Positions 32,798 through 43,092 of a DNA stretch of 64,000 bases are shown here, piece after piece; position 1 is the stretch's first letter, and the number at the start of each line of letters is the position of its first letter. The notes beneath the pieces are model-generated. The model was not told the DNA's origin. It searched no databases and saw nothing but the letters and a program-made list of their open reading frames with translations. Location of the stretch: positions 224,001 to 288,000 of the forward strand of contig JBEPYN010000001.1 in assembly GCA_041641305.1 (NCBI GenBank), given 5' to 3'. Both the position numbers and the translations under genes were made by a program. This DNA is from Nitrososphaerota archaeon. Its GTDB lineage: Archaea; Thermoproteota; Nitrososphaeria_A; Caldarchaeales; Caldarchaeaceae.

Positions 32798-34246
32798 CTA
32801 TATCACAAGTTTCGCCGAGAGGTAATTCTTGAGCTCCTCTATTTTCACTCGCTCCTGTTTCATAGTGTCTCTGTCCCGTACTGTTACCGTGTCATCTTCT
32901 ATGGTTTGGTAGTCGACTGTGACGCAGAAGGGTGTGCCTATCTCGTCCTGTCTCCTGTATCTCCTGCCTATGCTTCCTTTTTCGTCGTAGAAAGTGTCAA
33001 AATCCAGCTGCAGCATGGCGTGTACCCGTTGTGCAACCTCTGTTAGCTCAGGTTTGTCGAGTAGGGGGAAAACCGCCACGGTGTAAGGCGCTATATATGG
33101 GTGAAGACGAAGAACAGTTCTACCATTTTCCTCAACATATCCAAGCTCAAGTAATGCGAGAAGGCTTCTGTCAACACCCATAGAAAGCTCAAAGACATGA
33201 GGCAGGAAACTTTCTCCGTCTTCTGTTATACGGAGGTCTACGCCGCTAACTCTCTGATGCCCACCGAGGTCATAGTCGGTTCGGTTGTTGCAGGCGACGA
33301 GCTCCATCCACCCAGTCGAGGTAAGAACCTCGAGGTCCCAAGCCTCGGCTGCATAGAACGCCTTCTCATCATCGCCGAGCCTCCTGAACCTCAACCTATC
33401 GGAGCTTATACCCAAACGGAAGTAAAAGTCCTGCACTAGCCAAAGATAGTAGGCGACGAGCCAGCTCGAAACCAGGCCTTTCTCAACAGCTTGTCTACAT
33501 GTGACTTTTTCGACCCTTTCCCCAACCCACATGTTCAACTCTTTGCCGGCAACTTCTCTGGCTTTCGCGGGGTCGTTGGCTGTTCTTGGGTTGAAGAAAA
33601 CCTCTATCTCAGCCTGTGTAAACTCCCGCAGCCTGACAAGTGATTGACGAGGCGATATCTCGTTGCGAAAGCTTTTCCCGACCTGTGCCAGTGGAAGCGG
33701 TAGCTTCCGTCTCGAAATCTTGTAAATACGTGGAAAATCTATGAATATGTTTTGACATGTTTCGGGCCTAAGATATCCTTCGTCTCCTGATGCTCCCAGC
33801 GAAACACCGAACATCATGTTGAATAGGGATACCTTGTCCAGCTCGCCGCCGCAGGTTGGACAACGGAAACCATGCTCTGCAATAATTTCATCAATTTTCT
33901 CGGGCTGAGTACGTTCAGGAACCTTGATGCCGAGCTTCTCCTCCAGCAGCCTGTCAATTCTATAAACAGCTTTGCATGACCTGCATCTTGTTATTGGGTC
34001 GGCAAAGGTTGCAAGATGCCCAGAGGCAATGAACACTGCTTTGGGGAGAATCTGGGAGCCGTCTAAGAGAAGCATCTCATCCCTGCGAACCATTAGACGA
34101 TGCCAAGCGTCGATGAACTTGCGTTTGAGAAGAGCTCCGAGATGTCCGTATTCCCAGAAGCCGGCTGGAGACCCTGGGTAGATCTCCGCCGATGGAAAGA
34201 AAAACCCGCGCTCGAGACCAAGTTTAACAATTTCCTCGAGGCCCAT
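32798..34246 (-). CDS. glyS: Glycyl-tRNA synthetase (alpha2, archaeal/eukaryotic type)
   Basis: LRPETCQ, GKSFRNEISPR, REFTQAE.E, anticodon domain GSIGRRY.RQDEIGTP. Confidence 0.95.
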   Translation of the reverse strand: MGLEEIVKLGLERGFFFPSAEIYPGSPAGFWEYGHLGALLKRKFIDAWHRLMVRRDEMLLLDGSQILPKAVFIASGHLATFADPITRCRSCKAVYRIDRLLEEKLGIKVPERTQPEKIDEIIAEHGFRCPTCGGELDKVSLFNMMFGVSLGASGDEGYLRPETCQNIFIDFPRIYKISRRKLPLPLAQVGKSFRNEISPRQSLVRLREFTQAEIEVFFNPRTANDPAKAREVAGKELNMWVGERVEKVTCRQAVEKGLVSSWLVAYYLWLVQDFYFRLGISSDRLRFRRLGDDEKAFYAAEAWDLEVLTSTGWMELVACNNRTDYDLGGHQRVSGVDLRITEDGESFLPHVFELSMGVDRSLLALLELGYVEENGRTVLRLHPYIAPYTVAVFPLLDKPELTEVAQRVHAMLQLDFDTFYDEKGSIGRRYRRQDEIGTPFCVTVDYQTIEDDTVTVRDRDTMKQERVKIEELKNYLSAKLVI

Positions 34247-34257
34247 GTGGGCTCACG

Positions 34258-35022
34258 CTATACAACGGCTCTTCCGCAGTTGGGACATGTTCCGTTTATG
34301 TTTACGTAGGCGTCTAAACACCCCGAGTGAAACACGACGCCGCAGGATGAGCATTTGACAGCGTTTTCAGCCTCCACAGAGGTGTAGCAAATGGGGCAGA
34401 CAATCCCTTCCTCAACATCGCCAGCTACTTCGAAAGAGGTCGTCTCCAAAGACTGGGATGCTCCAGCCGTGGCCCCGCCCACTCCCCCGTAACTCTGATA
34501 AGGTATCTCGACGACCCGCGGCCGTGTCAGTAAAGCCACAATGCCGAGAGCGAGTATCACTACGGCCGAGAAAAGGGCGACGAAGAAACCTATCCCAGGC
34601 TCGCCGGCTACGCTAAGCGCCGGAACTCTGATGAACCCGAGATATAGGGGGGATACTAGGGCCATCCCACCTCCTAGTAGCGATAAGGCCACTAAAATTG
34701 TTCGCACGGACGTGACACGCTGGCTAAAAGATGTCACCAGCAAGGACAAACCAGCCAAAACACCCCCTAAAACGGATAGAAGCAGTGTCTCGGGCAATAT
34801 GTATCCGCTGAGGACAGAGGTGGAGACAGCGTCAGCCCTAACCGTGTACCATGGAAGAAGAAGCGTCAACACATGTACGCTGCCAGCCAAAGCCAGCACC
34901 GACCCTATCTGAAAAAACCGAATAAGCAACCGTCTCTCTGACACAACCATGCCGCTAAAAACCACATGCTCCACCATATAAAAACATGCCCTACGAGAAA
35001 CCCAAAAACTATCCTTGGCCAT
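34258..35022 (-). CDS. 4-TM membrane protein with C-terminal C4HC3 RING finger, putative membrane E3 ligase
   Basis: Four hydrophobic helices, a Gly/Ser linker, then C-x2-C-x11-C-x2-C-x4-H-x2-C-x10-C-x2-C. Confidence 0.8.
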   Translation of the reverse strand: MAKDSFWVSRRACFYMVEHVVFSGMVVSERRLLIRFFQIGSVLALAGSVHVLTLLLPWYTVRADAVSTSVLSGYILPETLLLSVLGGVLAGLSLLVTSFSQRVTSVRTILVALSLLGGGMALVSPLYLGFIRVPALSVAGEPGIGFFVALFSAVVILALGIVALLTRPRVVEIPYQSYGGVGGATAGASQSLETTSFEVAGDVEEGIVCPICYTSVEAENAVKCSSCGVVFHSGCLDAYVNINGTCPNCGRAVV

Positions 35023-35048
35023 TCTCCATCTAATACGACCAAGTAGAG

Positions 35049-35055
35049 TTTATAA
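35049..35055. promoter_or_regulatory. Candidate shared TATA box between divergent genes
   Basis: TTTATAA (palindromic TTATAA core) sits 24-27 nt from both ATG 35022 (-) and ATG 35079 (+). Confidence 0.5.
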
Positions 35056-35078
35056 CCACGTAGACCATCCTGTCACAC

Positions 35079-35912
35079 ATGGGTCTGCTCCCCAGAAAGT
35101 CCGACAGCTTGGCCGACCTCCGGAAAGAGGTGGCGGCCATACGGGTACAGGTTATAGAGAAACTTGAGGAAAGAATAAGTCTGCTCGAGGAGGCTTTGGC
35201 CAAGCTTAAAGAAGATGTCCGCCAGGTTCTTGAACAGGTTTCGTCTCCCCAGAGGACACTTTCATCGCTGCAATCCGTTGTGGAGAAAGCGTATCTACTT
35301 GATCAGGCGCTGGACTCGTACAAGGCTCTTACAGAGGAGGTTCGGTCCCTTAGTGAGAGTCTGCATGAGACGGCCGACCTTATTTCCAACCAACGGTCTG
35401 AACTGTTTAAGGAGACGCAGAGGCTTTTGCAGGAAAGGGAGAGTTTGTCGAGGCTTCGTGAGGAGGTGCTGAAGTGGCGTGAGGAGCTTGAGACCAAGGA
35501 GAAACAGATAGCGGAGGCCCAGGAGACGCTGAAGCAGCTTATCACCAAGAAGGAATCACTAGAGGCTGAGATAAATGTTCTGACGGAACGTTACTTTGCC
35601 GCGTTTGAGGAGGCTCAGAAAAAGCTGGAAAACTTCGGAAGGGAGATGGATAAGCTGTTCAAGTTGCGGGAGATACGGATGGAGAGGATGATACGTAGGG
35701 AGAGAGAGCTTGAGGAGCGTCTCGCCGAGCTGGAGAAAAGCAAGACCGAGGCCGAGGCCCTAATAGAAACATCCAACAAGCTCAGGGAAGAGGTCAAGAA
35801 GCTGGAGTCCCTTAAGGAGTCGCTGGCAAGAGAGATAGCTGATATGGAGAAACGGAGGAAGGAGCTTAACGAACTAATAACAGAGATGAGGCGCGCATTC
35901 CTGACATCATAG
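35079..35912 (+). CDS. Long coiled-coil protein
   Basis: E/K/R/L-rich heptads over nearly all 277 aa; no enzyme motif. Confidence 0.75.
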   Translation: MGLLPRKSDSLADLRKEVAAIRVQVIEKLEERISLLEEALAKLKEDVRQVLEQVSSPQRTLSSLQSVVEKAYLLDQALDSYKALTEEVRSLSESLHETADLISNQRSELFKETQRLLQERESLSRLREEVLKWREELETKEKQIAEAQETLKQLITKKESLEAEINVLTERYFAAFEEAQKKLENFGREMDKLFKLREIRMERMIRRERELEERLAELEKSKTEAEALIETSNKLREEVKKLESLKESLAREIADMEKRRKELNELITEMRRAFLTS

Positions 35913-36218
35913 CTTCAGCGCCTTCTTTATCTGGGCAACAGTGGCGGACAGCTCCCCAAGAGCGTTGAGAATCTCTCTAACGTCGTCGCTAAGCACCATC
36001 AGCTGCTCCTCTATGTATTTTAGCCTGCGCTCGAGGCCCTCGGGCACTTGGCTGCTCTCAGGCAGATTTTCCAGTCTCTCCTTCATCTTGTCAATCTCTT
36101 CTATAACCTCTGCGAGGACTTCGGCCAACTGTCGGACACCCTCGAACCTTGCGACCGCTCCTTTAGGCGTCTCCAGGTAATCCAGCTCAATAACTTTCTC
36201 GTTCTCTTCTCCACTCAT
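35907..36218 (-). CDS. Small coiled-coil protein, apparent last gene of the ubiquitin operon
   Basis: Starts 1 nt after the srfp stop; short beta-like N-terminus followed by heptads. Confidence 0.75.
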   Translation of the reverse strand: MSGEENEKVIELDYLETPKGAVARFEGVRQLAEVLAEVIEEIDKMKERLENLPESSQVPEGLERRLKYIEEQLMVLSDDVREILNALGELSATVAQIKKALKL

Positions 36219-36219
36219 T

Positions 36220-36450
36220 TCACATCTCTACCAACGGCCTTCGGCAAAGCGGGCACGTCTGCCTAACCACGAGCCAGTCATCGAAACAGGCCATGTGGCC
36301 AACTGCTCCACAGTGAGGACACGAATACGTTTTCTCATTCCCCATCTCCAGCCCACATATCACGCAACTCTCCTGCTTAAGCCGTTGCTTCTGCTCCTCA
36401 AACGGGTTCCAGAACCCTGCGTTAATCTCCTTAATTACCAGCCTCAACAA
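36220..36450 (-). CDS. srfp: Small RING finger protein (E3 ligase)
   Basis: CVIC-x11-CPHC-x4-H-x2-C-x10-CPLCRR with Trp in the central helix; overlaps the E1 end. Confidence 0.9.
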   Translation of the reverse strand: MLRLVIKEINAGFWNPFEEQKQRLKQESCVICGLEMGNEKTYSCPHCGAVGHMACFDDWLVVRQTCPLCRRPLVEM

Positions 36451-37630
36451 GCCTCACCTTTACAGCAACCGGTGTTGCTCTTCTGCTTGAATGGATATAA
36501 AGTATGTCACCGTCGACTATGCCCGCTGACTCTATCTCCATATCATCGCTTAACAATTTTGCACCATGCTGTAACCTCGTGTCCGGGAACATGAGCAGGT
36601 TAGATAGCCTCTCTCTCAAATCGGCGACAGTCTCGTCTGGCGAGACGTTAACCTGCATAGGCTTATCTTCATCGTAGCCGCATACATGGCAGTTAATGTT
36701 TCTCTCCAGCTTTATCCGCGTAAGCCTTCCCTTCAGCCCGTCGAAAACCATCATCCCGTTCAACGGCCTGCCCAAAGAACCTTTATGCAGTATTCGGACG
36801 ACCTCGAAAGCAGCCAAGCCGGAGACTGTAGCCGATATGCTCTGTAAAGCAGGCATCTTGGGGTTGAGCAGTGAGCGGAGCTGTATAACCTGGTCTCGGA
36901 GACCCTTATCCATTTGGTCTAACACGGTCTGTGGAGCAAACTTAATGTCGTAAACAGTCTTGATATTGTATTTGAAGAGTGCCTCAGCCTCTGAAACTTC
37001 CAGTACTATGCCTCGTTCACTCAGCTCCTTTACGAGGTCGTTTGGGGTGCGGCGGCGTAGAGAGCATTCGGACGCCTGTATGTCGGCGGGAATAAGGGCC
37101 TCTGCGTGGCATTCGAGGCAGCTTGTAACACGAGGTATCACAGTTTGAACATTGCCATAATATCCGTCTGTTGCGACGTCAACAAGCGCAGTTCCAACAT
37201 GCACCGCCATCGAGTTTATCCATCTTCTAGTAGGCCAGTTGTCAACAGCGGAAACTATGACATCAACCTCTCCGAAGGTTTCTTCGGGGATTCTTCGAAC
37301 ATCTGTTTGTAAGCCTTTTACTTTTACGAGAGGGTTCATCATGGATATTTTTTTCTCGGCCGTAGATGCTTTTGGCTGGCCTATGTCTTGGTCGGTGTAG
37401 AGCATCTGGCGGCTGAGGTTGGAGAGCTCAACGTAGTCGTTGTCTATGAGGAGCAGCTCACCCACGCCCATAAGCGATAGGTTTTTCGCCACCTCGCATC
37501 CCAGCGCCCCCACACCCGCGATAACCACCCTCCCCGACAGGAGCCTGCTCTGGTCCCATCCCTCGAGCCTTAGCTGACGGTCGTACCTCGACAGAGCGTC
37601 AACCTCGCCCAAAACTACAAACCCTTCCAA
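36431..37630 (-). CDS. e1l: Ubiquitin-activating enzyme E1 with C-terminal Ub-fold domain
   Basis: RYDRQ, GVGALGCE, SNLSRQ, Zn pairs CLEC and CHVC, candidate catalytic Cys in SECS, C-terminal beta-grasp-like ETVADL...GAKLL...GI.DGD. Confidence 0.93.
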   Translation of the reverse strand: MEGFVVLGEVDALSRYDRQLRLEGWDQSRLLSGRVVIAGVGALGCEVAKNLSLMGVGELLLIDNDYVELSNLSRQMLYTDQDIGQPKASTAEKKISMMNPLVKVKGLQTDVRRIPEETFGEVDVIVSAVDNWPTRRWINSMAVHVGTALVDVATDGYYGNVQTVIPRVTSCLECHAEALIPADIQASECSLRRRTPNDLVKELSERGIVLEVSEAEALFKYNIKTVYDIKFAPQTVLDQMDKGLRDQVIQLRSLLNPKMPALQSISATVSGLAAFEVVRILHKGSLGRPLNGMMVFDGLKGRLTRIKLERNINCHVCGYDEDKPMQVNVSPDETVADLRERLSNLLMFPDTRLQHGAKLLSDDMEIESAGIVDGDILYIHSSRRATPVAVKVRLVEAGN

Positions 37631-38121
37631 CGCTTCTTTCCAAAAGCCTGCTCAGGCGTAGCAAATGTTTCAACAAACTGTCTAACACGGGCGTAGAATA
37701 GGTCGGGCCTGTTCTTGTACTCAAATGCTGCGACGGGGTTAAGAGGATCCTCGGGGTTGGGGTTCGTCAGAAGGTTTCTCAGCGACTCGATAACCGCCAC
37801 AATGCGGAGAGAAGGTGACCAATGGTCTTTGAAAATTGATTCACAAACCCTTGCAGGGACGCTGTCCGAGAAATTTGGGTGCCATATACGTGTGTGCCAT
37901 ATAACATCTGGCGGGAAATATGGATAGGACCTCGGAATGATTATTTCTACTCTGAAGTAGCCTCCCTCATATTCGCCTGAGCCAACTATAACGCCTTCGT
38001 AATGGGTTAGGTCGTTTTCAACAGGTGTGAAGGTGGGCTCATTCTCCTGAATCAACGCATACTCGAGAGCCAGCCGCCTGTACCACGCGTTTTCAGGCAG
38101 CTCGACGTATTGGCTCTCCAT
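37615..38121 (-). CDS. e2l: Ubiquitin-conjugating enzyme E2
   Basis: RRL..E, YEGG.F, YP..PP, WHPN, catalytic Cys (RVCES), WSP, PNPEDPLN..AA. Confidence 0.96.
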   Translation of the reverse strand: MESQYVELPENAWYRRLALEYALIQENEPTFTPVENDLTHYEGVIVGSGEYEGGYFRVEIIIPRSYPYFPPDVIWHTRIWHPNFSDSVPARVCESIFKDHWSPSLRIVAVIESLRNLLTNPNPEDPLNPVAAFEYKNRPDLFYARVRQFVETFATPEQAFGKKRWKGL

Positions 38122-38356
38122 ATCCGCCCACCGTCCTCGTTATGAGTACGAATTTGTCTCCATCGGCTACTCCGAGGCTCTCAAGTGTTTCCGTGTCTTT
38201 GAGAGCTCTTCCTTTATAGGTTAGACGTGTGGTGTCGGGTGGAAGTTTCTTCATGGCGCAAACCTTCGTCCGAACTGCTCCGACGGTGGCGTTTGGAGCA
38301 ACCTCGAGCTCTAAGGGTGAACCTCCTCCGACAGCTGGAACGATCTTAATCTTCAT
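38093..38356 (-). CDS. ub: Eukaryote-type ubiquitin precursor (87 aa; G77-G78 plus a 9-aa propeptide)
   Basis: MKIKIV...TVGAVRTKV...RLTYKGRALKD..TLESLGV.DGD...RTVGG|YGEPIRRAA; ATG at 38356. Confidence 0.95.
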   Translation of the reverse strand: MKIKIVPAVGGGSPLELEVAPNATVGAVRTKVCAMKKLPPDTTRLTYKGRALKDTETLESLGVADGDKFVLITRTVGGYGEPIRRAA

Positions 38357-38497
38357 TTCTGAACTCCTGATAACCACAGCGTATATAAGGATTAACCAGA
38401 AGTCAAACCTCGAGCCAGCTTACAAAATACCTCGGTAATATTCAATATCGTTTCTTGCAGCGTCATTTTTATTACCGTCCGAGTCATCGGTCTCCCA

Positions 38498-39106
38498 ATG
38501 CGTGTGCGTATCTACCCACTGGCCTTGGCGAAGGTTGTAAAGCACGCTGCCTCAAGCCTCAACCGAGAGGTGGCGGGCCTCCTCGTCGGCAAATCGGCTG
38601 GGAAAGTTCTGGAGATATGGGACGCGGTCACAGGTGAGCAATATGGTACCCCTGCTTACGTGCAGCTTGATGAGCTGGTCATGGCTAGGGTTGCGGAAGA
38701 CCTCTCTAAATCGGATAAAAACCTGTACATAGTCGGATGGTATCATTCTCATCCGGGGCTTGATGTTTTTCTATCGCCGACAGACATCGACACGCAGAAA
38801 AGATACCAGGCCATGTACAGCAAGGCCGTCGCGCTCGTGGTGGACCCTGTTGAGTATGCCAAGACACGTAGAATCTCTGCTCTTAAGTTCAAGGTTTTCC
38901 AGATATCGAAAGAGGGGAAGGTTGTTTCTCTTCCTGTAAGCATTGGAGTACACAGAGCTAAGCTTCTTGAAAGCACTCTCCACGCCCTGAGCACTTTTGA
39001 TTTTATACATATCTTCGGAGAGTCTTCCAGTAAGACGAGGGAGAAGCCTTCGTTGGATGAACAGGAGAGTTTGCTGGAAAAAGCTAAAAAGTTATTCGGA
39101 GTGTAG
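38498..39106 (+). CDS. rpn11: JAMM/MPN+ metalloprotease (Rpn11-like deubiquitinase / pro-Ub maturase)
   Basis: REVAGLLVG, GWYHSHPGLDVFLSPTD; divergent from ub. Confidence 0.95.
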   Translation: MRVRIYPLALAKVVKHAASSLNREVAGLLVGKSAGKVLEIWDAVTGEQYGTPAYVQLDELVMARVAEDLSKSDKNLYIVGWYHSHPGLDVFLSPTDIDTQKRYQAMYSKAVALVVDPVEYAKTRRISALKFKVFQISKEGKVVSLPVSIGVHRAKLLESTLHALSTFDFIHIFGESSSKTREKPSLDEQESLLEKAKKLFGV

Positions 39107-39137
39107 AAGAGAATAGCTGGGACGGGGTCGCTGAAGC

Positions 39138-39929
39138 TTGCCGAAAAAAATCGTTCTCCGCATAAAGCCGTCGACGCAGCATCAAGAGACCTCTCCAGAC
39201 ATAGAGATGGTTACTCCTCAACCTTCACAAGAGGAACAACCTGCTAAAGAAGAGAATGTGAAACCTGTTGAGGAGCCTGTTCAACAGCCGGTTGGTGACG
39301 ACCTTGACGCGGCTCTAAAAATGTATGAGGAGCTGATGCGAGAGGTTGAACGGCTGCGCGGTCTCGACCGTAACTTCATGCTTTACTGCATCAAAATGGA
39401 GGAGCTGAGACCTCAGCTGGTGAGAAACATTTTGGGCAGACTTGCCGAGAAAAGGAACGCGTTGCTGGAGAAAAGTGAAGAGGTTTTGGAGAGGCTTAAG
39501 GCGGCGAGAGAAGCCATAGGCTCAGAGTTTGCCCAAGTAGAGGAGGAGCTGATTTGGTCCAGCATCGAGCTAAACACCATGCAGCTTGAGAAGGATACAG
39601 ACTCTGATAAGGGTGTCGGATTAAGGGAGGAGCTTGAGGCAAAGATACCTGAGCTAAGAAAAAAGCTCGCAAGCCTACGAAACAGGTTAAAGATGATTGA
39701 GGAGATGGTGAAACAGCTCTCTGACCTACCGCGCAACATAGCAGACATGACGACAAATAAGGAGGAGCCGGCCAAACTTTTCGAGGAAATCAAGAAAAAA
39801 TACATGCTATCATATGGGCAGCGCGCCGAGGCTGTTGCGAGGGCGGAGGTTGAGAAAATCGCTCAACAGGAGTCGATACCGCGGGAGTATGCTGTTATTA
39901 TTCTCTGGAAAAGCATGTCCAACCGTTAA
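39138..39929 (+). CDS. Coiled-coil protein with disordered P/E/Q-rich N-terminus
   Basis: Heptad-rich helices; 31 nt downstream of rpn11 on the same strand. Confidence 0.72.
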   Translation: MPKKIVLRIKPSTQHQETSPDIEMVTPQPSQEEQPAKEENVKPVEEPVQQPVGDDLDAALKMYEELMREVERLRGLDRNFMLYCIKMEELRPQLVRNILGRLAEKRNALLEKSEEVLERLKAAREAIGSEFAQVEEELIWSSIELNTMQLEKDTDSDKGVGLREELEAKIPELRKKLASLRNRLKMIEEMVKQLSDLPRNIADMTTNKEEPAKLFEEIKKKYMLSYGQRAEAVARAEVEKIAQQESIPREYAVIILWKSMSNR

Positions 39930-40324
39930 AGCACTGGCCTGAATTTTACGCCATAGATTATTAGCTTCGACTCGCCGTCTACACGGATTTTTCTCACGAC
40001 CGTTTCGACATCCATTCCAACTGTAAGCTCTGATGGTTCGCAGTCTGTCATCTGACCTATTACCTGCGTGCCGTCGGGCATCTCAACCCATGCTACAATG
40101 TATGGAACATTTTTCTCAAGACCTGTCTGAGGTTGATAAACTACGGTGAAATGCTTCAGTTTGCCGTGGTTGGCGAGCCTATCTCTTTCAAGTCTGCGTG
40201 AACCACATTTTCTACATATCTTCCGAGAAAACGGGTTGAAGTGGCCGCACTGTGTGCAACGGTTTCCCTCAAGCCTGTAGAGATAGGGGCGGAGACGCCA
40301 GTATGAGGATGGCCGGGTTGACAT
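39926..40324 (-). CDS. DUF35 Zn-ribbon/OB-fold protein
   Basis: CTQCG...CRKCG, QMTD, VGMDVE.V.RK, YG.KFRP. Confidence 0.92.
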   Translation of the reverse strand: MSTRPSSYWRLRPYLYRLEGNRCTQCGHFNPFSRKICRKCGSRRLERDRLANHGKLKHFTVVYQPQTGLEKNVPYIVAWVEMPDGTQVIGQMTDCEPSELTVGMDVETVVRKIRVDGESKLIIYGVKFRPVL

Positions 40325-40325
40325 G

Positions 40326-41483
40326 CTACACCCACTCCTCTACAACGGCAACTGCTGAGAAGGAGCCGAGTCCAGCCATCGAGGACACAAGACCCGCCTT
40401 AGCGCCGTCGACCTGATTTTTTCCAGCGCGTCCAGACAGTTGCAGAAAGCTTTCAACCAAGGCGTAGAGACCCGAGGCCCCTACCGGGTTCCCGCGGCCC
40501 TTCAAACCACCGAATGTGTTGACAGGCACCTCACCCGACAGCGACCACCTGCCTTTACGCGCGAGATGACATGACTCACCGGCCTCTGCCAACCCAATAG
40601 CTTCAAGAGAAAGCGGCGTCAACAAGCTGTAGCTATCATGAACTTCCACGAAGTCAAGATCAGACACCTTTCTCCCCGCCATCTCCAAAGCCCTCTGAGA
40701 AGCCAGAGATAGGCTCCTCAGCCATAGAGGGTCTTCGCGGTCAAACGGAGAGAGATAATCCGTGGCCGCACCAATGCCTGAAACCACAGCCTTGTAGCCG
40801 TCTGTTTTCTGGGCTGTTTCCAGTGACGTGATTACAACAGCGGCTGCTCCGTCCGCCGGAGCAGTTGTCTCCAGCCGCCTAATTGGTTCTGCTACGCTTG
40901 GCGAGTTTACGACTGTGTCGAGGGTGATTTTGAACTGGTATTGAGCGTGCGGCACGGTTTGAGAATGCTCATGGCTGAGGACTGAGAAGTAAGCAACATC
41001 TTCATGCTCCAGCCTGTTGCGTTTCAAATACTCTTTGTAGAGTAGAGCCGCTTCGGCCAGTTGTGTCACTCCAAGTGCAGCAACAGTTTCCGCGGGCTCC
41101 TCCGTCGTGAGCAGTGACACGTAATCCTCGGAAGTGGCCTCAGACATTTTTTCGCCGCCGACAACGAGGACAGATTTGTATAGGCCGGATGAAACAGCTG
41201 CGACGGCGGCTATTGCTGCAGCCAGGCCGGAGGCCCCGCCGGCCTCAACCCTTGAGGCGGCCACACCTCTTATCCCAAGCTCTTCCGCGAGATATGCTCC
41301 GATGTTGGACTGCTCCTGCAGAACCTGCCCAAATGTGTTTGAGACATATACCGCGTCTACTGCGGATATGCCAGCGGAATCGAGTGCTTGTACCGAGGCT
41401 TCCGCCATAAGCTCTGTCAAGCCTTTGTCCCAGTGCTCCTCAACCTTCGTCAACCCAGCGCCTACCAACGCAGCCCGCAACAC
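40326..41483 (-). CDS. Archaeal/SCP2-type thiolase homologue lacking catalytic residues
   Basis: GGEKM, DGAAA, EVHD, VN..GGLK.RG are present, but the catalytic motifs read EAGGASG, HDSY and GNP. Confidence 0.88.
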   Translation of the reverse strand: MLRAALVGAGLTKVEEHWDKGLTELMAEASVQALDSAGISAVDAVYVSNTFGQVLQEQSNIGAYLAEELGIRGVAASRVEAGGASGLAAAIAAVAAVSSGLYKSVLVVGGEKMSEATSEDYVSLLTTEEPAETVAALGVTQLAEAALLYKEYLKRNRLEHEDVAYFSVLSHEHSQTVPHAQYQFKITLDTVVNSPSVAEPIRRLETTAPADGAAAVVITSLETAQKTDGYKAVVSGIGAATDYLSPFDREDPLWLRSLSLASQRALEMAGRKVSDLDFVEVHDSYSLLTPLSLEAIGLAEAGESCHLARKGRWSLSGEVPVNTFGGLKGRGNPVGASGLYALVESFLQLSGRAGKNQVDGAKAGLVSSMAGLGSFSAVAVVEEWV

Positions 41484-41484
41484 G

Positions 41485-42531
41485 CTACACCCTTATCTTC
41501 TCCCTGAATTTGAGGTAGGTCGAGTAATCGATCGGCTTTCTGCGGCTGAGCAGTTGGCTGAAGCTCGGGCCCCTGCCGCGTTTCTCCTCCACGCCGTCGC
41601 AGACAGTTAACACGAAAGAGTCGCTTCCAGCTCCCGAGCCATAAGAGGTCATCAGTATACGCTGACCCGGCTTAGCTATGTCTAAGACCTTTGCAAGACC
41701 AATCATCGAGCAGGCGGCATAAGTGTTTCCGACCACGTCAGCCACTATGCCGGGCTTCACCTTCTCAACGGGAATGGAAAGTATCTTTGAGACCGCGAGA
41801 GGGAATTTTACGTTAGGCTGGTGGAAAACAAAGTAGTCTATGTCGGTGACGGTGAACCCGTTTTCCTCGAGCACGGTCTTGACAGCAGAAAGGGTGTGGT
41901 GGAAGTAGGCTGGTTCCCCTGTGAAGCGGGACCCATGCATCGGATACCGTTCATAGCTTCTTCTCCAGAAGTCAGGAGTGTCGGACACGTATGATGTCGA
42001 GTATTCGAATTTCGCTACACAGTCTGAGCCGTTTCGTCCTATGAGGAAGGCCGCGGCCCCGCTTGCCGCGGTGTATTCGAGGGCATCCCCAGGCCTCCCC
42101 TGAGCTGTGTCAGCTCCTATTGCAAGCCCAAACTCAATCCTCCCTGTCTCGACGAGAGCTGTAACCATCTGCATAGCCTCTGTCCCCGCTTTGCAGGCGA
42201 ACTCGAAATCAGCGGTGGTCACGTGGCGGGATACACCGAGGATTTCGGCGACCAACGTGCCAGAGGGTTTGACCGCATATGGCTTTGACTCTGTTCCCAC
42301 ATGAACCGCCTGAACCCTTGAAGGCTCCACATCAGCCCTAGCCAGAGCCATTCGAGCGGCCTCGGCGGCCATTGTTATAGTGTCTTCATCCAAACCCGCC
42401 ACTGCCTTCTCTTTGACAGGCAGGTCGGCGGAGGATTTCCCCCAGACCCTTGCTATCTCCTCACCAGCAATCCTATACCTGGGGAGATAGCAACCATAAC
42501 CATGAATAGCCGCGTCCCTTATCTTCGGCAT
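41485..42531 (-). CDS. Archaeal HMG-CoA synthase
   Basis: DED..TM, GTES.PYAVKP, EFACKAGT, FTGEPAYF.H, HQPN, GNTY, SYGSGAGSD. Confidence 0.94.
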   Translation of the reverse strand: MPKIRDAAIHGYGCYLPRYRIAGEEIARVWGKSSADLPVKEKAVAGLDEDTITMAAEAARMALARADVEPSRVQAVHVGTESKPYAVKPSGTLVAEILGVSRHVTTADFEFACKAGTEAMQMVTALVETGRIEFGLAIGADTAQGRPGDALEYTAASGAAAFLIGRNGSDCVAKFEYSTSYVSDTPDFWRRSYERYPMHGSRFTGEPAYFHHTLSAVKTVLEENGFTVTDIDYFVFHQPNVKFPLAVSKILSIPVEKVKPGIVADVVGNTYAACSMIGLAKVLDIAKPGQRILMTSYGSGAGSDSFVLTVCDGVEEKRGRGPSFSQLLSRRKPIDYSTYLKFREKIRV

Positions 42532-42642: not shown

Positions 42643-43092
42643 ATGACAATGGAACTCGATGAAAAGGATTTGAGAATTCTTCAAGAGCTTGTGGAGGATG
42701 CTGAGCAGGCGGTTTCAGCCATAGCGGCTAAGGTTAAGATGCCTCGCACAACTGTTCAGGAGAGGATTAAGCGGCTTAAGCAGCTGGGCGTGATAAAGAA
42801 GTTCACGGTTCAGCTTGATCATTCTAAGCTGGGCAAACCCGCCACAGCATTTGTCCTCGTCTCCTTCCAGCAGGGAACAACTTCGCAGAAGAAACTGGCC
42901 GAGGAAATAGCGAAGCTTCCCGAGGTCGTTGAGGCACATGTCATAACCGGTGAATGGGACATAATCGTGAAAGTAAGGTCCGAGTCTATGCAGTCCATCG
43001 GCGCTCTCGTTGTCGACAAAATCAGGAACATGCCAGGCGTCGGAAAAACTATTACATGTGTTTCGCTCGCAGCCGTCAAAGAAAGCGTCTAA
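42643..43092 (+). CDS. Lrp/AsnC transcriptional regulator
   Basis: LDEKD..IL, HTH TV..RIKRL...GVI, TGEWD RAM domain. Confidence 0.93.
   Translation: MTMELDEKDLRILQELVEDAEQAVSAIAAKVKMPRTTVQERIKRLKQLGVIKKFTVQLDHSKLGKPATAFVLVSFQQGTTSQKKLAEEIAKLPEVVEAHVITGEWDIIVKVRSESMQSIGALVVDKIRNMPGVGKTITCVSLAAVKESV

Follow-up and report, generated by a model that had tools for sequence, protein, structure and literature searches.

A conserved nine-gene ubiquitin locus of Caldarchaeales combines a published ubiquitylation core with four uncharacterized, order-restricted genes

Gene content of the locus and its published core

The window analyzed here is a stretch of 64,000 nucleotides from a Nitrososphaerota archaeon of the order Caldarchaeales (family Caldarchaeaceae), corresponding to positions 224,001 to 288,000 of contig JBEPYN010000001.1 in assembly GCA_041641305.1. 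Between 34258 and 39929 it comprises exactly nine open reading frames (ORFs), which are flanked by the housekeeping gene glyS on one side and by a DUF35-thiolase-HMGS cluster on the other (Table 1). No tRNA, Rfam RNA or any further gene was found among the nine ORFs. According to Pfam, five of them encode a eukaryote-type ubiquitin system consisting of ubiquitin (Ub), an E2, an E1, a small RING protein (sRING, also termed srfp) and a divergent Rpn11/JAMM protein. The remaining four are uncharacterized and encode a RING protein with four transmembrane (TM) helices, referred to as TM-RING, and three helical proteins of 277, 103 and 263 amino acids (CC277, CC103 and CC263), none of which yielded a Pfam or NCBIfam match reaching the cut-off. 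A previous reading of the letters alone, here called the sequence-only reading, had proposed a nine-gene ubiquitin locus between glyS and HMGS, and with respect to gene content this proposal was borne out.

The five core genes are those of the published Caldiarchaeum-type ubiquitylation system. The rpn11l-ubl-e2l-e1l-srfp cluster of Candidatus Caldiarchaeum subterraneum (CSUB_C1473-C1477) has been described previously (Nunoura 2011, PMC3082918). Its cascade has been reconstituted in vitro (Hennell James 2017, PMC5654768) and has been the subject of a structural study (Fuchs 2018, PMC6043591), and in vitro assays have demonstrated enzymatic activity of the C. subterraneum orthologs (PMC5654768, PMC6043591). 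The locus in the window shares with that cluster the same five genes, their order and orientation, the overlapping reading frames, a Ub tail that extends past Gly-Gly and an E1 with a C-terminal Ub-like domain. Ub, E2, E1 and srfp are co-directional, successive genes overlapping by 29, 16 and 20 nt, and the divergent JAMM has an intact metal site. The Ub fold is present, and the sequence reads ...TVGG followed by a nine-residue tail. In E1 a weak ubiquitin-family match (Pfam) covers residues 325–381 at the C-terminus, and sRING is the ortholog of CSUB_C1477 (PMC3082918, PMC5654768). In addition, the identity of the window proteins to their counterparts in G009, a single-contig genome from the same genus, amounts to 87–98% (89% for sRING). 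Since the cluster has been published and the window proteins are this similar to a same-genus copy, we regard the core as already known. E2 was found in 40 of 40 relatives searched. A sample of 400 genomes of the phylum yielded E2 in each of the 58 genomes, G000 not counted, that belong to the order's four families; outside these families, only six genomes had it.

The papers on the Caldiarchaeum cluster cover the five core genes and do not treat TM-RING, CC277, CC103, CC263 or their order-wide linkage; the flanking coding sequences carry no label other than 'hypothetical proteins' (PMC3082918, Fig. 3 legend). No mention of the four additional proteins was found in the searchable literature. 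As far as we could search, the accessory set is thus undescribed and the core five genes are known.

Table 1. Features of the locus in the window and of related loci in other genomes (loci L, genomes G, contigs C, families f, genera g)
Feature	Position	Strand	Remarks
TM-RING	34258..34950	-	230 aa; Pfam zf-RING_2, E 2.8e-9
CC277	35079..35912	+	long coiled coil (predicted); monocistronic; divergent from TM-RING, convergent with CC103
CC103	35907..36218	-	final gene of the Ub-E2-E1-sRING operon
sRING (srfp)	36220..36450	-	76 aa; Pfam zf-RING_2, E 1.6e-9
E1-like activating enzyme	36431..37630	-	399 aa; Pfam ThiF, E 7e-57
E2-like conjugating enzyme	37615..38121	-	168 aa; Pfam UQ_con, E 1.2e-29
Ubiquitin precursor	38093..38356	-	Pfam ubiquitin, E 9e-13; longest ORF 94 aa
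Rpn11-like JAMM deubiquitinase (predicted)	38498..39106	+	202 aa; Pfam JAB, E 7e-22
CC263	39138..39929	+	TTG start; second gene of the JAMM operon
glyS	32798-34246	minus	housekeeping flank
DUF35-thiolase-HMGS cluster	39926-42531	minus	housekeeping flank
Lrp/AsnC-type regulator	42643-43092	+	just past the HMGS cluster
TATA-like box, TM-RING	~34970-34977
TATA-like box, CC277	35048-35054
TATA-like box, Ub	~38381-38387
JAMM with TM tail anchor, family f3	L045:8306-9088, L046:8645-9445, L047:10562-11353
JAMM, tail-anchored, outgroup	L056:10606-11235
JAMM of 525 aa, outgroup	L051:10680-12257, L052:7874-9457, L053:7831-9417
Ub ending at Gly-Gly	L048:9524-9760, L050:10331-10567, L057:10431-10667, L062:10309-10545		examples, among others
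Insertions between E2 and E1, g7	L041:10287-11731; L044:10318-10989		opposite strand to the operon
Possible second E2/UEV-RING locus, g8	G033:C1:95499-95693 + 98603-98779; G035:C23:64058-64252 + 67167-67346; G026:C2:193705-193953
Gene following E1, g8	L048:11509-12072; L049:11527-12087		186-187 aa

Conservation and modular organization across the order

Loci were sampled as 20 kb around E2 in 40 genomes, around CC277 in 12, and as shorter stretches around CC263 in five more, and the nine families were mapped on these loci by tblastn and hidden Markov models. All nine genes occurred in the order and orientation of the window in families f1 and f3 and in genus g7 of family f4. This nine-gene arrangement is not random but far beyond chance. 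The sequence-only reading had been laid open to refutation by a lack of conservation of the flanking genes with the Ub genes across Caldarchaeales; the flanks proved to be conserved order-wide, and the refutation fails.

Comparison of the rearranged loci resolves three modules, namely Ub-E2-E1; sRING-CC103 together with the convergent CC277 and the divergent TM-RING-glyS; and JAMM-CC263. In family f2 (g5, g12, g13), the block comprising sRING-CC103, CC277 and TM-RING-glyS is intact and lies apart from Ub-E2-E1, the two being separated by 85 kb on the same contig in genome G017. As this block stays whole away from Ub-E2-E1, the proven E3 travels with CC103, CC277 and TM-RING and not with E1 and E2. 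In genus g8, the locus is split into four pieces (Ub-E2-E1; sRING-CC103 with CC277; TM-RING; JAMM-CC263) and all families are kept. Both in g8 and in a divergent lineage (L090/L091), JAMM and CC263 adjoin each other though they lie away from Ub and E2. A break between E2 and E1 was found in genome G036.

Within the modules, sRING and CC103 were co-directional in 32 of 32 loci, with a median gap of 1 nt and many overlaps of 4–11 nt. JAMM and CC263 were likewise co-directional, with a median gap of −4 nt (19 loci). The stops of CC103 and CC277 were convergent in all 34 loci (median −4 nt, overlapping in most), and the divergent spacer between CC277 and TM-RING had a median length of 126 bp (28 loci). 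In the window, CC103 starts 1 nt after the sRING stop and CC263 starts 31 nt after the JAMM stop, the stop of TM-RING is separated from the start of glyS by 11 nt, and CC277 and TM-RING are divergent. The earlier claim that each gene of unknown function is tied to a RING or JAMM gene by promoter or operon is therefore upheld by the junctions of sRING-CC103, JAMM-CC263 and CC277/TM-RING.

The four additional genes are real and conserved, and in the genomes and databases that were searched they are confined to this order. All four families are single copy and keep invariant columns in orthologs down to 25–30% identity. CC277 was present, in single copy, in 72 of 75 genomes of the order, and CC263 in 70 of 75 (42 of 42 high-quality ones). 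In a collection of 5.8 billion proteins, the relatives of CC277 and CC103 originated from metagenome-assembled genomes labeled Caldarchaeum, Aigarchaeota or Nitrososphaerota, with a single one labeled 'Halobacteria archaeon'. A CC263 profile run against 1.84 billion representatives retrieved 14 clusters below 1e-30, followed by noise. Two divergent members of these clusters were looked up, and both adjoin JAMM genes; a longer, fused form of CC263 was not found, which is weak evidence. In five outgroup genomes with Ub-E2-E1-JAMM, no match to the profiles of TM-RING (RING finger included), CC277 or CC263 was obtained. The three helical families have no detectable relationship to one another (hhalign 8–13%).

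The accessory proteins and their possible roles

Hydropathy analysis of TM-RING indicated four TM helices, which a variable linker joins to a RING-H2 finger at the C-terminus. The spacing of the finger, C-x2-C-x11-C-x2-C-x4-H-x2-C-x10-C-x2-C, is identical to that of sRING and conforms to the cross-brace C3HC4/RING-H2 type (zf-RING_2 37.5 bits, cut-off 27.3). All eight Zn ligands and several TM residues are invariant in 19 orthologs. Judged by sequence, the TM-RING finger is a paralog of the sRING finger. Applying the positive-inside rule to the sequence and its TM segments fits a topology with both termini inside, and the RING would accordingly be placed in the cytoplasm. Such a multi-pass membrane protein with a predicted cytoplasmic RING is reminiscent of the Hrd1-type polytopic membrane RING E3s, which in contrast have six or more TM helices instead of four. 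For the TM part, no Pfam family relationship was found.

The JAMM motif E...HxH...S...D is intact, and residues E24, H83, H85, S93 and D96 do not vary among 18 orthologs. In the genus of the window, JAMM carries a basic amphipathic C-terminal tail (hydrophobic moment ~0.5). Such tails occur in the families of the order other than f3 (hydrophobic moment of an 11-mer 0.5–0.8), while in f3 the amphipathic tail is replaced by an apolar C-terminal tail anchor of 21–23 residues. The outgroup loci contain JAMM-Ub-E2-E1 and no RING gene. One outgroup JAMM is tail-anchored, and those of 525 amino acids (L051 to L053) consist of an MPN domain, a single TM helix at approximately residues 180–205 and a C-terminal part for which Pfam gives no more than weak Ig-like matches below threshold. 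It is well known that a protein can stay at the membrane when its TM anchor gives way to an amphipathic tail. Based on the predicted topology of TM-RING and the independent anchors or amphipathic tails of JAMM, we consider a membrane-associated ubiquitin system plausible and reasonably supported. The earlier proposal of one membrane-associated system may thus stand with regard to the membrane but not with regard to unity, as the locus falls into three separable modules.

All three helical proteins had been taken for coiled coils in the sequence-only reading. This label fits CC277 and the C-terminal two thirds of CC103, but not CC263. Conserved features of CC277 are an N-terminal M-G/S-hydrophobic-hydrophobic-G-x-K-K motif, W133, Y172, the sequence KLREIRLER and a C-terminal EMRRAxLTP. 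The AlphaFold2 (AF2) model, based on 25 sequences, predicts a continuous helix of ~220 residues (57–276) in addition to a helix at 9–55 (pLDDT 87, pTM 0.33), as expected for the subunit of a long coiled coil. CC103 starts with an acidic N-terminus, continues with a hairpin-like motif, [E/D]-T-P-x-G, in which T-P-x-G is invariant and x is not always Lys, and ends with ~70 residues of predicted heptad-like helix; a motif of the form I-x-x-K-T-P is absent from it. Sequence searches of all three helical families against solved structures returned only generic coiled-coil or designed-protein matches, and a feature search in the ESM Atlas retrieved only its own cluster for CC277 and nothing usable for CC263.

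Several candidate identities of these proteins were rejected. Kinship of CC277 with ESCRT-III/Snf7/PspA, families that the sequence-only reading had listed for comparison, was dismissed: neither Snf7 (PF03357) nor PspA (PF04012) matched CC277 in a whole-genome scan that found two CdvB genes elsewhere, and neither is among the Pfam matches of CC277 at E≤0.1. The comparison by hhalign with a profile of the order's CdvB proteins gave a probability of 0.3%, and the model has no alpha1-alpha2 hairpin, although little weight can be given to the monomer model of a protein that is oligomeric. The hydrophobic-basic N-terminus of CC277 resembles those of the order's CdvB proteins, with a low helical hydrophobic moment and a motif of unspecific type; short hydrophobic-basic CdvB N-termini have been found to bind the membrane in Sulfolobus (PMC12818579). 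CC277 was also rejected as an SMC/Rad50 protein (SMC model 36.9 bits compared to a cut-off of 567; 277 residues, all helix, without ATPase heads), and CC103 as a prefoldin (Pfam Prefoldin 15.8 bits, cut-off 23.2; TIGR00293 13.9, cut-off 53.9). In databases, relatives of CC277 and CC103 are misnamed Smc ('chromosome segregation ATPase'), prefoldin or FlaC, or else are hypothetical; we judged these names to reflect coiled-coil composition.

CC263 has a conserved N-terminus (MPKKIVIK), an acidic/Pro-rich linker of ~45 residues and a conserved C-terminal IPREYAIILxWK. In the AF2 model (18 sequences), the first ~50 residues are disordered and residues 52–262 form a compact six-helix bundle (pLDDT >90 for 184 residues, pTM 0.67), so that CC263 is predicted to be a compact helical bundle and not a coiled coil. 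The Foldseek comparison that had been proposed as a check returned nothing from the PDB at E≤0.001, an AhlC/ClyA-type bundle coming closest (E 0.017, TM-score ~0.3), and a fold search in the ESM Atlas gave nothing above a TM-score of 0.5. With VIA-align against 48,161 structural representatives, the top match was the CdvA filament of S. islandicus (9s9g_A; Z 11.7, root-mean-square deviation 3.2 Å over 130 residues), directly followed by designed helical bundles (Z 11.3 and 10.7), and by the program's own caution values below ~13 are common for helical proteins. By hhalign, CC263 and a CdvA alignment reached a probability of 39%, compared to 0.2–15% for other profile pairs run alike. The Pfam CdvA model (PF18822), however, did not match CC263 even at E≤1, its best match in the genome (E 0.09) lying elsewhere, and CC263 has no N-terminal PRC barrel, residues 1–50 being predicted as disordered with a conserved motif of only eight residues. 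Both proteins are archaeal, non-enzymatic and helical, but CC263 is linked to a JAMM gene and CdvA (9s9g; PMC12818579) to cdvB/cdvC. We conclude that a CdvA-like fold of CC263 is a weak lead; the comparison with CdvA, which the sequence-only reading had listed as a check, yields the top structural match but not a signal separated from unrelated bundles. A complex prediction for JAMM and CC263 (alignments of 18 rows each, no controls) gave an ipSAE of 0.00 in both runs, which is evidence neither way.

Canonical CdvA (PF18822) was detected in 0 of 13 genomes of the order, compared to 76 of 120 genomes sampled across the phylum, and CdvB/Snf7 was present in 22 of 24 genomes of the order. As CdvB is present without canonical CdvA, the CdvB recruiter in this order is not a recognizable CdvA.

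Some functional tie of the additional genes to the E3 and deubiquitinase genes, be it as partners and adaptors or as dedicated substrates, is in our estimate fairly probable. The explanation we favor, to which we assign about an even chance, is that the known Caldiarchaeum-type system is joined by four order-restricted accessory genes that belong to it functionally, as partners or adaptors. Ub-E2-E1 would represent the tag and activation module. The soluble sRING, co-translated with CC103 and located beside CC277 and the polytopic membrane RING, would form the ligase module, and the Rpn11-like JAMM, co-translated with CC263, the removal module. CC103, along with CC277, may be a partner of the RING ligases without catalytic function of its own, namely an adaptor, a scaffold or else a first substrate dedicated to them, and both could supply the substrate-binding part that the RING protein of 76 residues lacks. 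CC263 might position or regulate the deubiquitinase, and the whole ubiquitin cycle would take place on the cytoplasmic side of the membrane. From the genes observed, their conservation, operon coupling, order restriction and membrane anchors we infer that the accessory proteins bind the enzymes, fulfil such roles and have the membrane as their site of action. A RING working with a long coiled coil is known from the TRIM-type RING-coiled-coil E3s of eukaryotes. The resemblance is one of parts only: in the locus, different genes encode the RING and the coiled coil, neither a B-box nor a substrate-binding C-terminal domain is present, and sequence comparison shows only generic coiled-coil matches.

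A number of observations weigh against the partner/adaptor explanation. E3 and Rpn11 activity have been reconstituted without the accessory proteins (PMC5654768, PMC6043591), which are therefore not required for catalysis in vitro. In g10, g11 and g14, CC263 does not lie beside JAMM but 5–10 kb beyond glyS. Synteny of the housekeeping flanks is about equal to that of the accessory genes: glyS is located directly downstream of TM-RING in all four families and inverted only in g9, and the DUF35-thiolase-HMGS cluster stays beside CC263 in f1, g10 and the L092 lineage. Background synteny is thus high, adjacency by itself is no proof of a functional tie, and the conserved block really amounts to ~13 genes with housekeeping genes at both ends. 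Since the clade represents one lineage within one order, the joint presence of the genes counts as approximately one evolutionary event. Among ~10 independent breakpoints in the region, none falls on the sRING/CC103 or CC103/CC277 junctions; by a rough estimate of our own, two given junctions would escape all breakpoints with a chance of ~0.09, which is suggestive but not decisive. Finally, no relative by fold or sequence offers a clue to function.

In the strongest competing explanation, the linkage is merely historical and the helical proteins, perhaps together with TM-RING, are unrelated, lineage-specific structural or cytoskeletal proteins that have nothing to do with ubiquitin and are encoded in a slowly rearranging stretch of the chromosome. 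Retention of glyS and HMGS-thiolase-DUF35 at about the level of the accessory genes and the origin of all genomes from a single order favor it. The core junctions Ub/E2, E2/E1 and E1/sRING are also broken in some lineages, indicating that the linkage is partly historical. However, the accessory genes are set apart from glyS and HMGS in three respects. Their families were found only in the RING-bearing Ub clade and not in the five RING-less outgroup Ub genomes; the TM-RING finger is a paralog of that of sRING with identical spacing; and the stop/start overlaps of sRING-CC103 and JAMM-CC263, indicative of translational coupling, are kept down to ~25–30% protein identity. Moreover, the pairs sRING-CC103/CC277 and JAMM-CC263 mostly survive rearrangement, including the scattering in g8, the exceptions being JAMM-CC263 in g10, g11 and g14. 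We regard a purely historical linkage as a serious but distinctly less probable explanation. Less likely still is that the helical proteins are dedicated substrates, that is, the main targets of the system, with assembly or turnover switched by ubiquitylation and removal of Ub by JAMM. The physiological targets have been stated to be unknown, and in an srfp-dependent reaction in vitro, coiled-coil lysines of Rad50, a surrogate substrate, were modified (PMC5654768). The helical proteins are rich in Lys and Glu (8–9% Lys), with nearly invariant lysines, and genes of modifier systems and of their targets are often linked. On the other hand, no conserved lysine motif stands out, the variable position within the invariant T-P-x-G of CC103 not always being Lys, and coupled translation is generally seen with stoichiometric partners more than with substrates.

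A role in division or membrane remodeling, with CC263 as a CdvA-like filament former, CC277 as an ESCRT-III/PspA-like membrane binder and Ub coupled to Cdv/ESCRT-type membrane scission, appears improbable. It is favored by the CdvA filament at the top of the CC263 structural matches, by the comparatively high hhalign probability, by the lack of canonical CdvA alongside CdvB in the order and by the CdvB-like N-terminus of CC277. These observations are countered by a Z value that is not separated from those of designed bundles and lies below the caution level, by CC263 lacking both a Pfam CdvA match and a PRC barrel, by the straight helix and missing Snf7, PspA and CdvB profile matches of CC277, and by the absence of any Vps4/CdvC or CdvB gene from the locus. 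We give slightly less credence yet, so that it is very improbable, to a combined version, a minimal membrane-bound ubiquitin machine in which RING polypeptides with CC103 and CC277 as separate coiled-coil subunits would constitute a 'split TRIM' E3 that works beside a membrane RING, and JAMM would be docked by CC263 as a CdvA-like filament former, which would tie ubiquitylation to CdvB/ESCRT-III-type membrane remodeling in an archaeon without canonical CdvA; if true, the link between ubiquitin and ESCRT known from eukaryotes would have a prokaryotic forerunner of independent origin. Sorting, division and proteasome delivery had each been put forward by the sequence-only reading, and nothing found singles out any of them. 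The observation made in that reading was confirmed with corrections and its interpretation is partly supported, the mechanism being one that we infer.

The Caldiarchaeum system, on which the partner/adaptor explanation bears, is the best-characterized prokaryotic model for ubiquitylation of the eukaryotic type. The four coupled, order-specific genes are concrete and cheap candidates for adaptors, scaffolds or first substrates that could be added to the existing reconstitution. If confirmed, they would provide substrate-selecting accessory subunits and membrane-localized ubiquitylation in archaea outside the Asgard group.

Start sites, promoters and variation of the core genes

The start of TM-RING is most likely the ATG at 34950 (230 aa) and not position 35022 of the longest ORF (254 aa), since the orthologs align from there and a TATA-like box is located 20–27 nt upstream, within the longer ORF. 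Similarly, Ub most likely starts with the ATG at 38356 (MKIKIV...) instead of the GTG at 38377, as the orthologs begin with MKIKIV and the spacing of the TATA-like box fits. The distances of the TATA-like boxes to the corrected starts are those expected for leaderless archaeal mRNAs, and the boxes are arranged back-to-back within both divergent spacers. A shared operator for the two divergent promoters was discarded as a candidate, the only word common to both regions being the 8-mer ATAACCAC, which is at about chance level. The word (A/T)AACCAC adjoins three of four TATA-like boxes (at 34960, 35052 and 38370), a count near chance expectation. The N-termini of sRING (MKIVIK), Ub (MKIKIV) and CC263 (MPKKIVIK) resemble one another in a short, basic, strand-like motif, which is kept in the orthologs of each. 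An Lrp/AsnC-type regulator is encoded just past the HMGS cluster in the window (Table 1); in genus g7, where the HMGS cluster sits elsewhere, its ortholog consequently adjoins CC263 directly.

The core genes varied in several lineages (positions in Table 1). In f2, g11 and g14, the Ub gene ends exactly at Gly-Gly (78 aa), compared to the nine-residue tail in the genus of the window, indicating that precursor processing by JAMM is not needed in every lineage of the order. In g7, insertions on the opposite strand between E2 and E1 split the otherwise overlapping operon; one of these, ~2 kb in size, encodes two hydrophobic proteins, and another encodes an ORF of 223 amino acids. The gene following E1 in g8 is not sRING but encodes a protein of 186–187 amino acids with a coiled-coil-like N-terminus and without a Pfam family. 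Genus g8 further displays a second, weak E2-like (UQ_con) match within an ORF of 270–290 amino acids, with an additional RING-like match ~3 kb away in genomes G033 and G035, and these matches may represent a second E2/UEV-RING locus.

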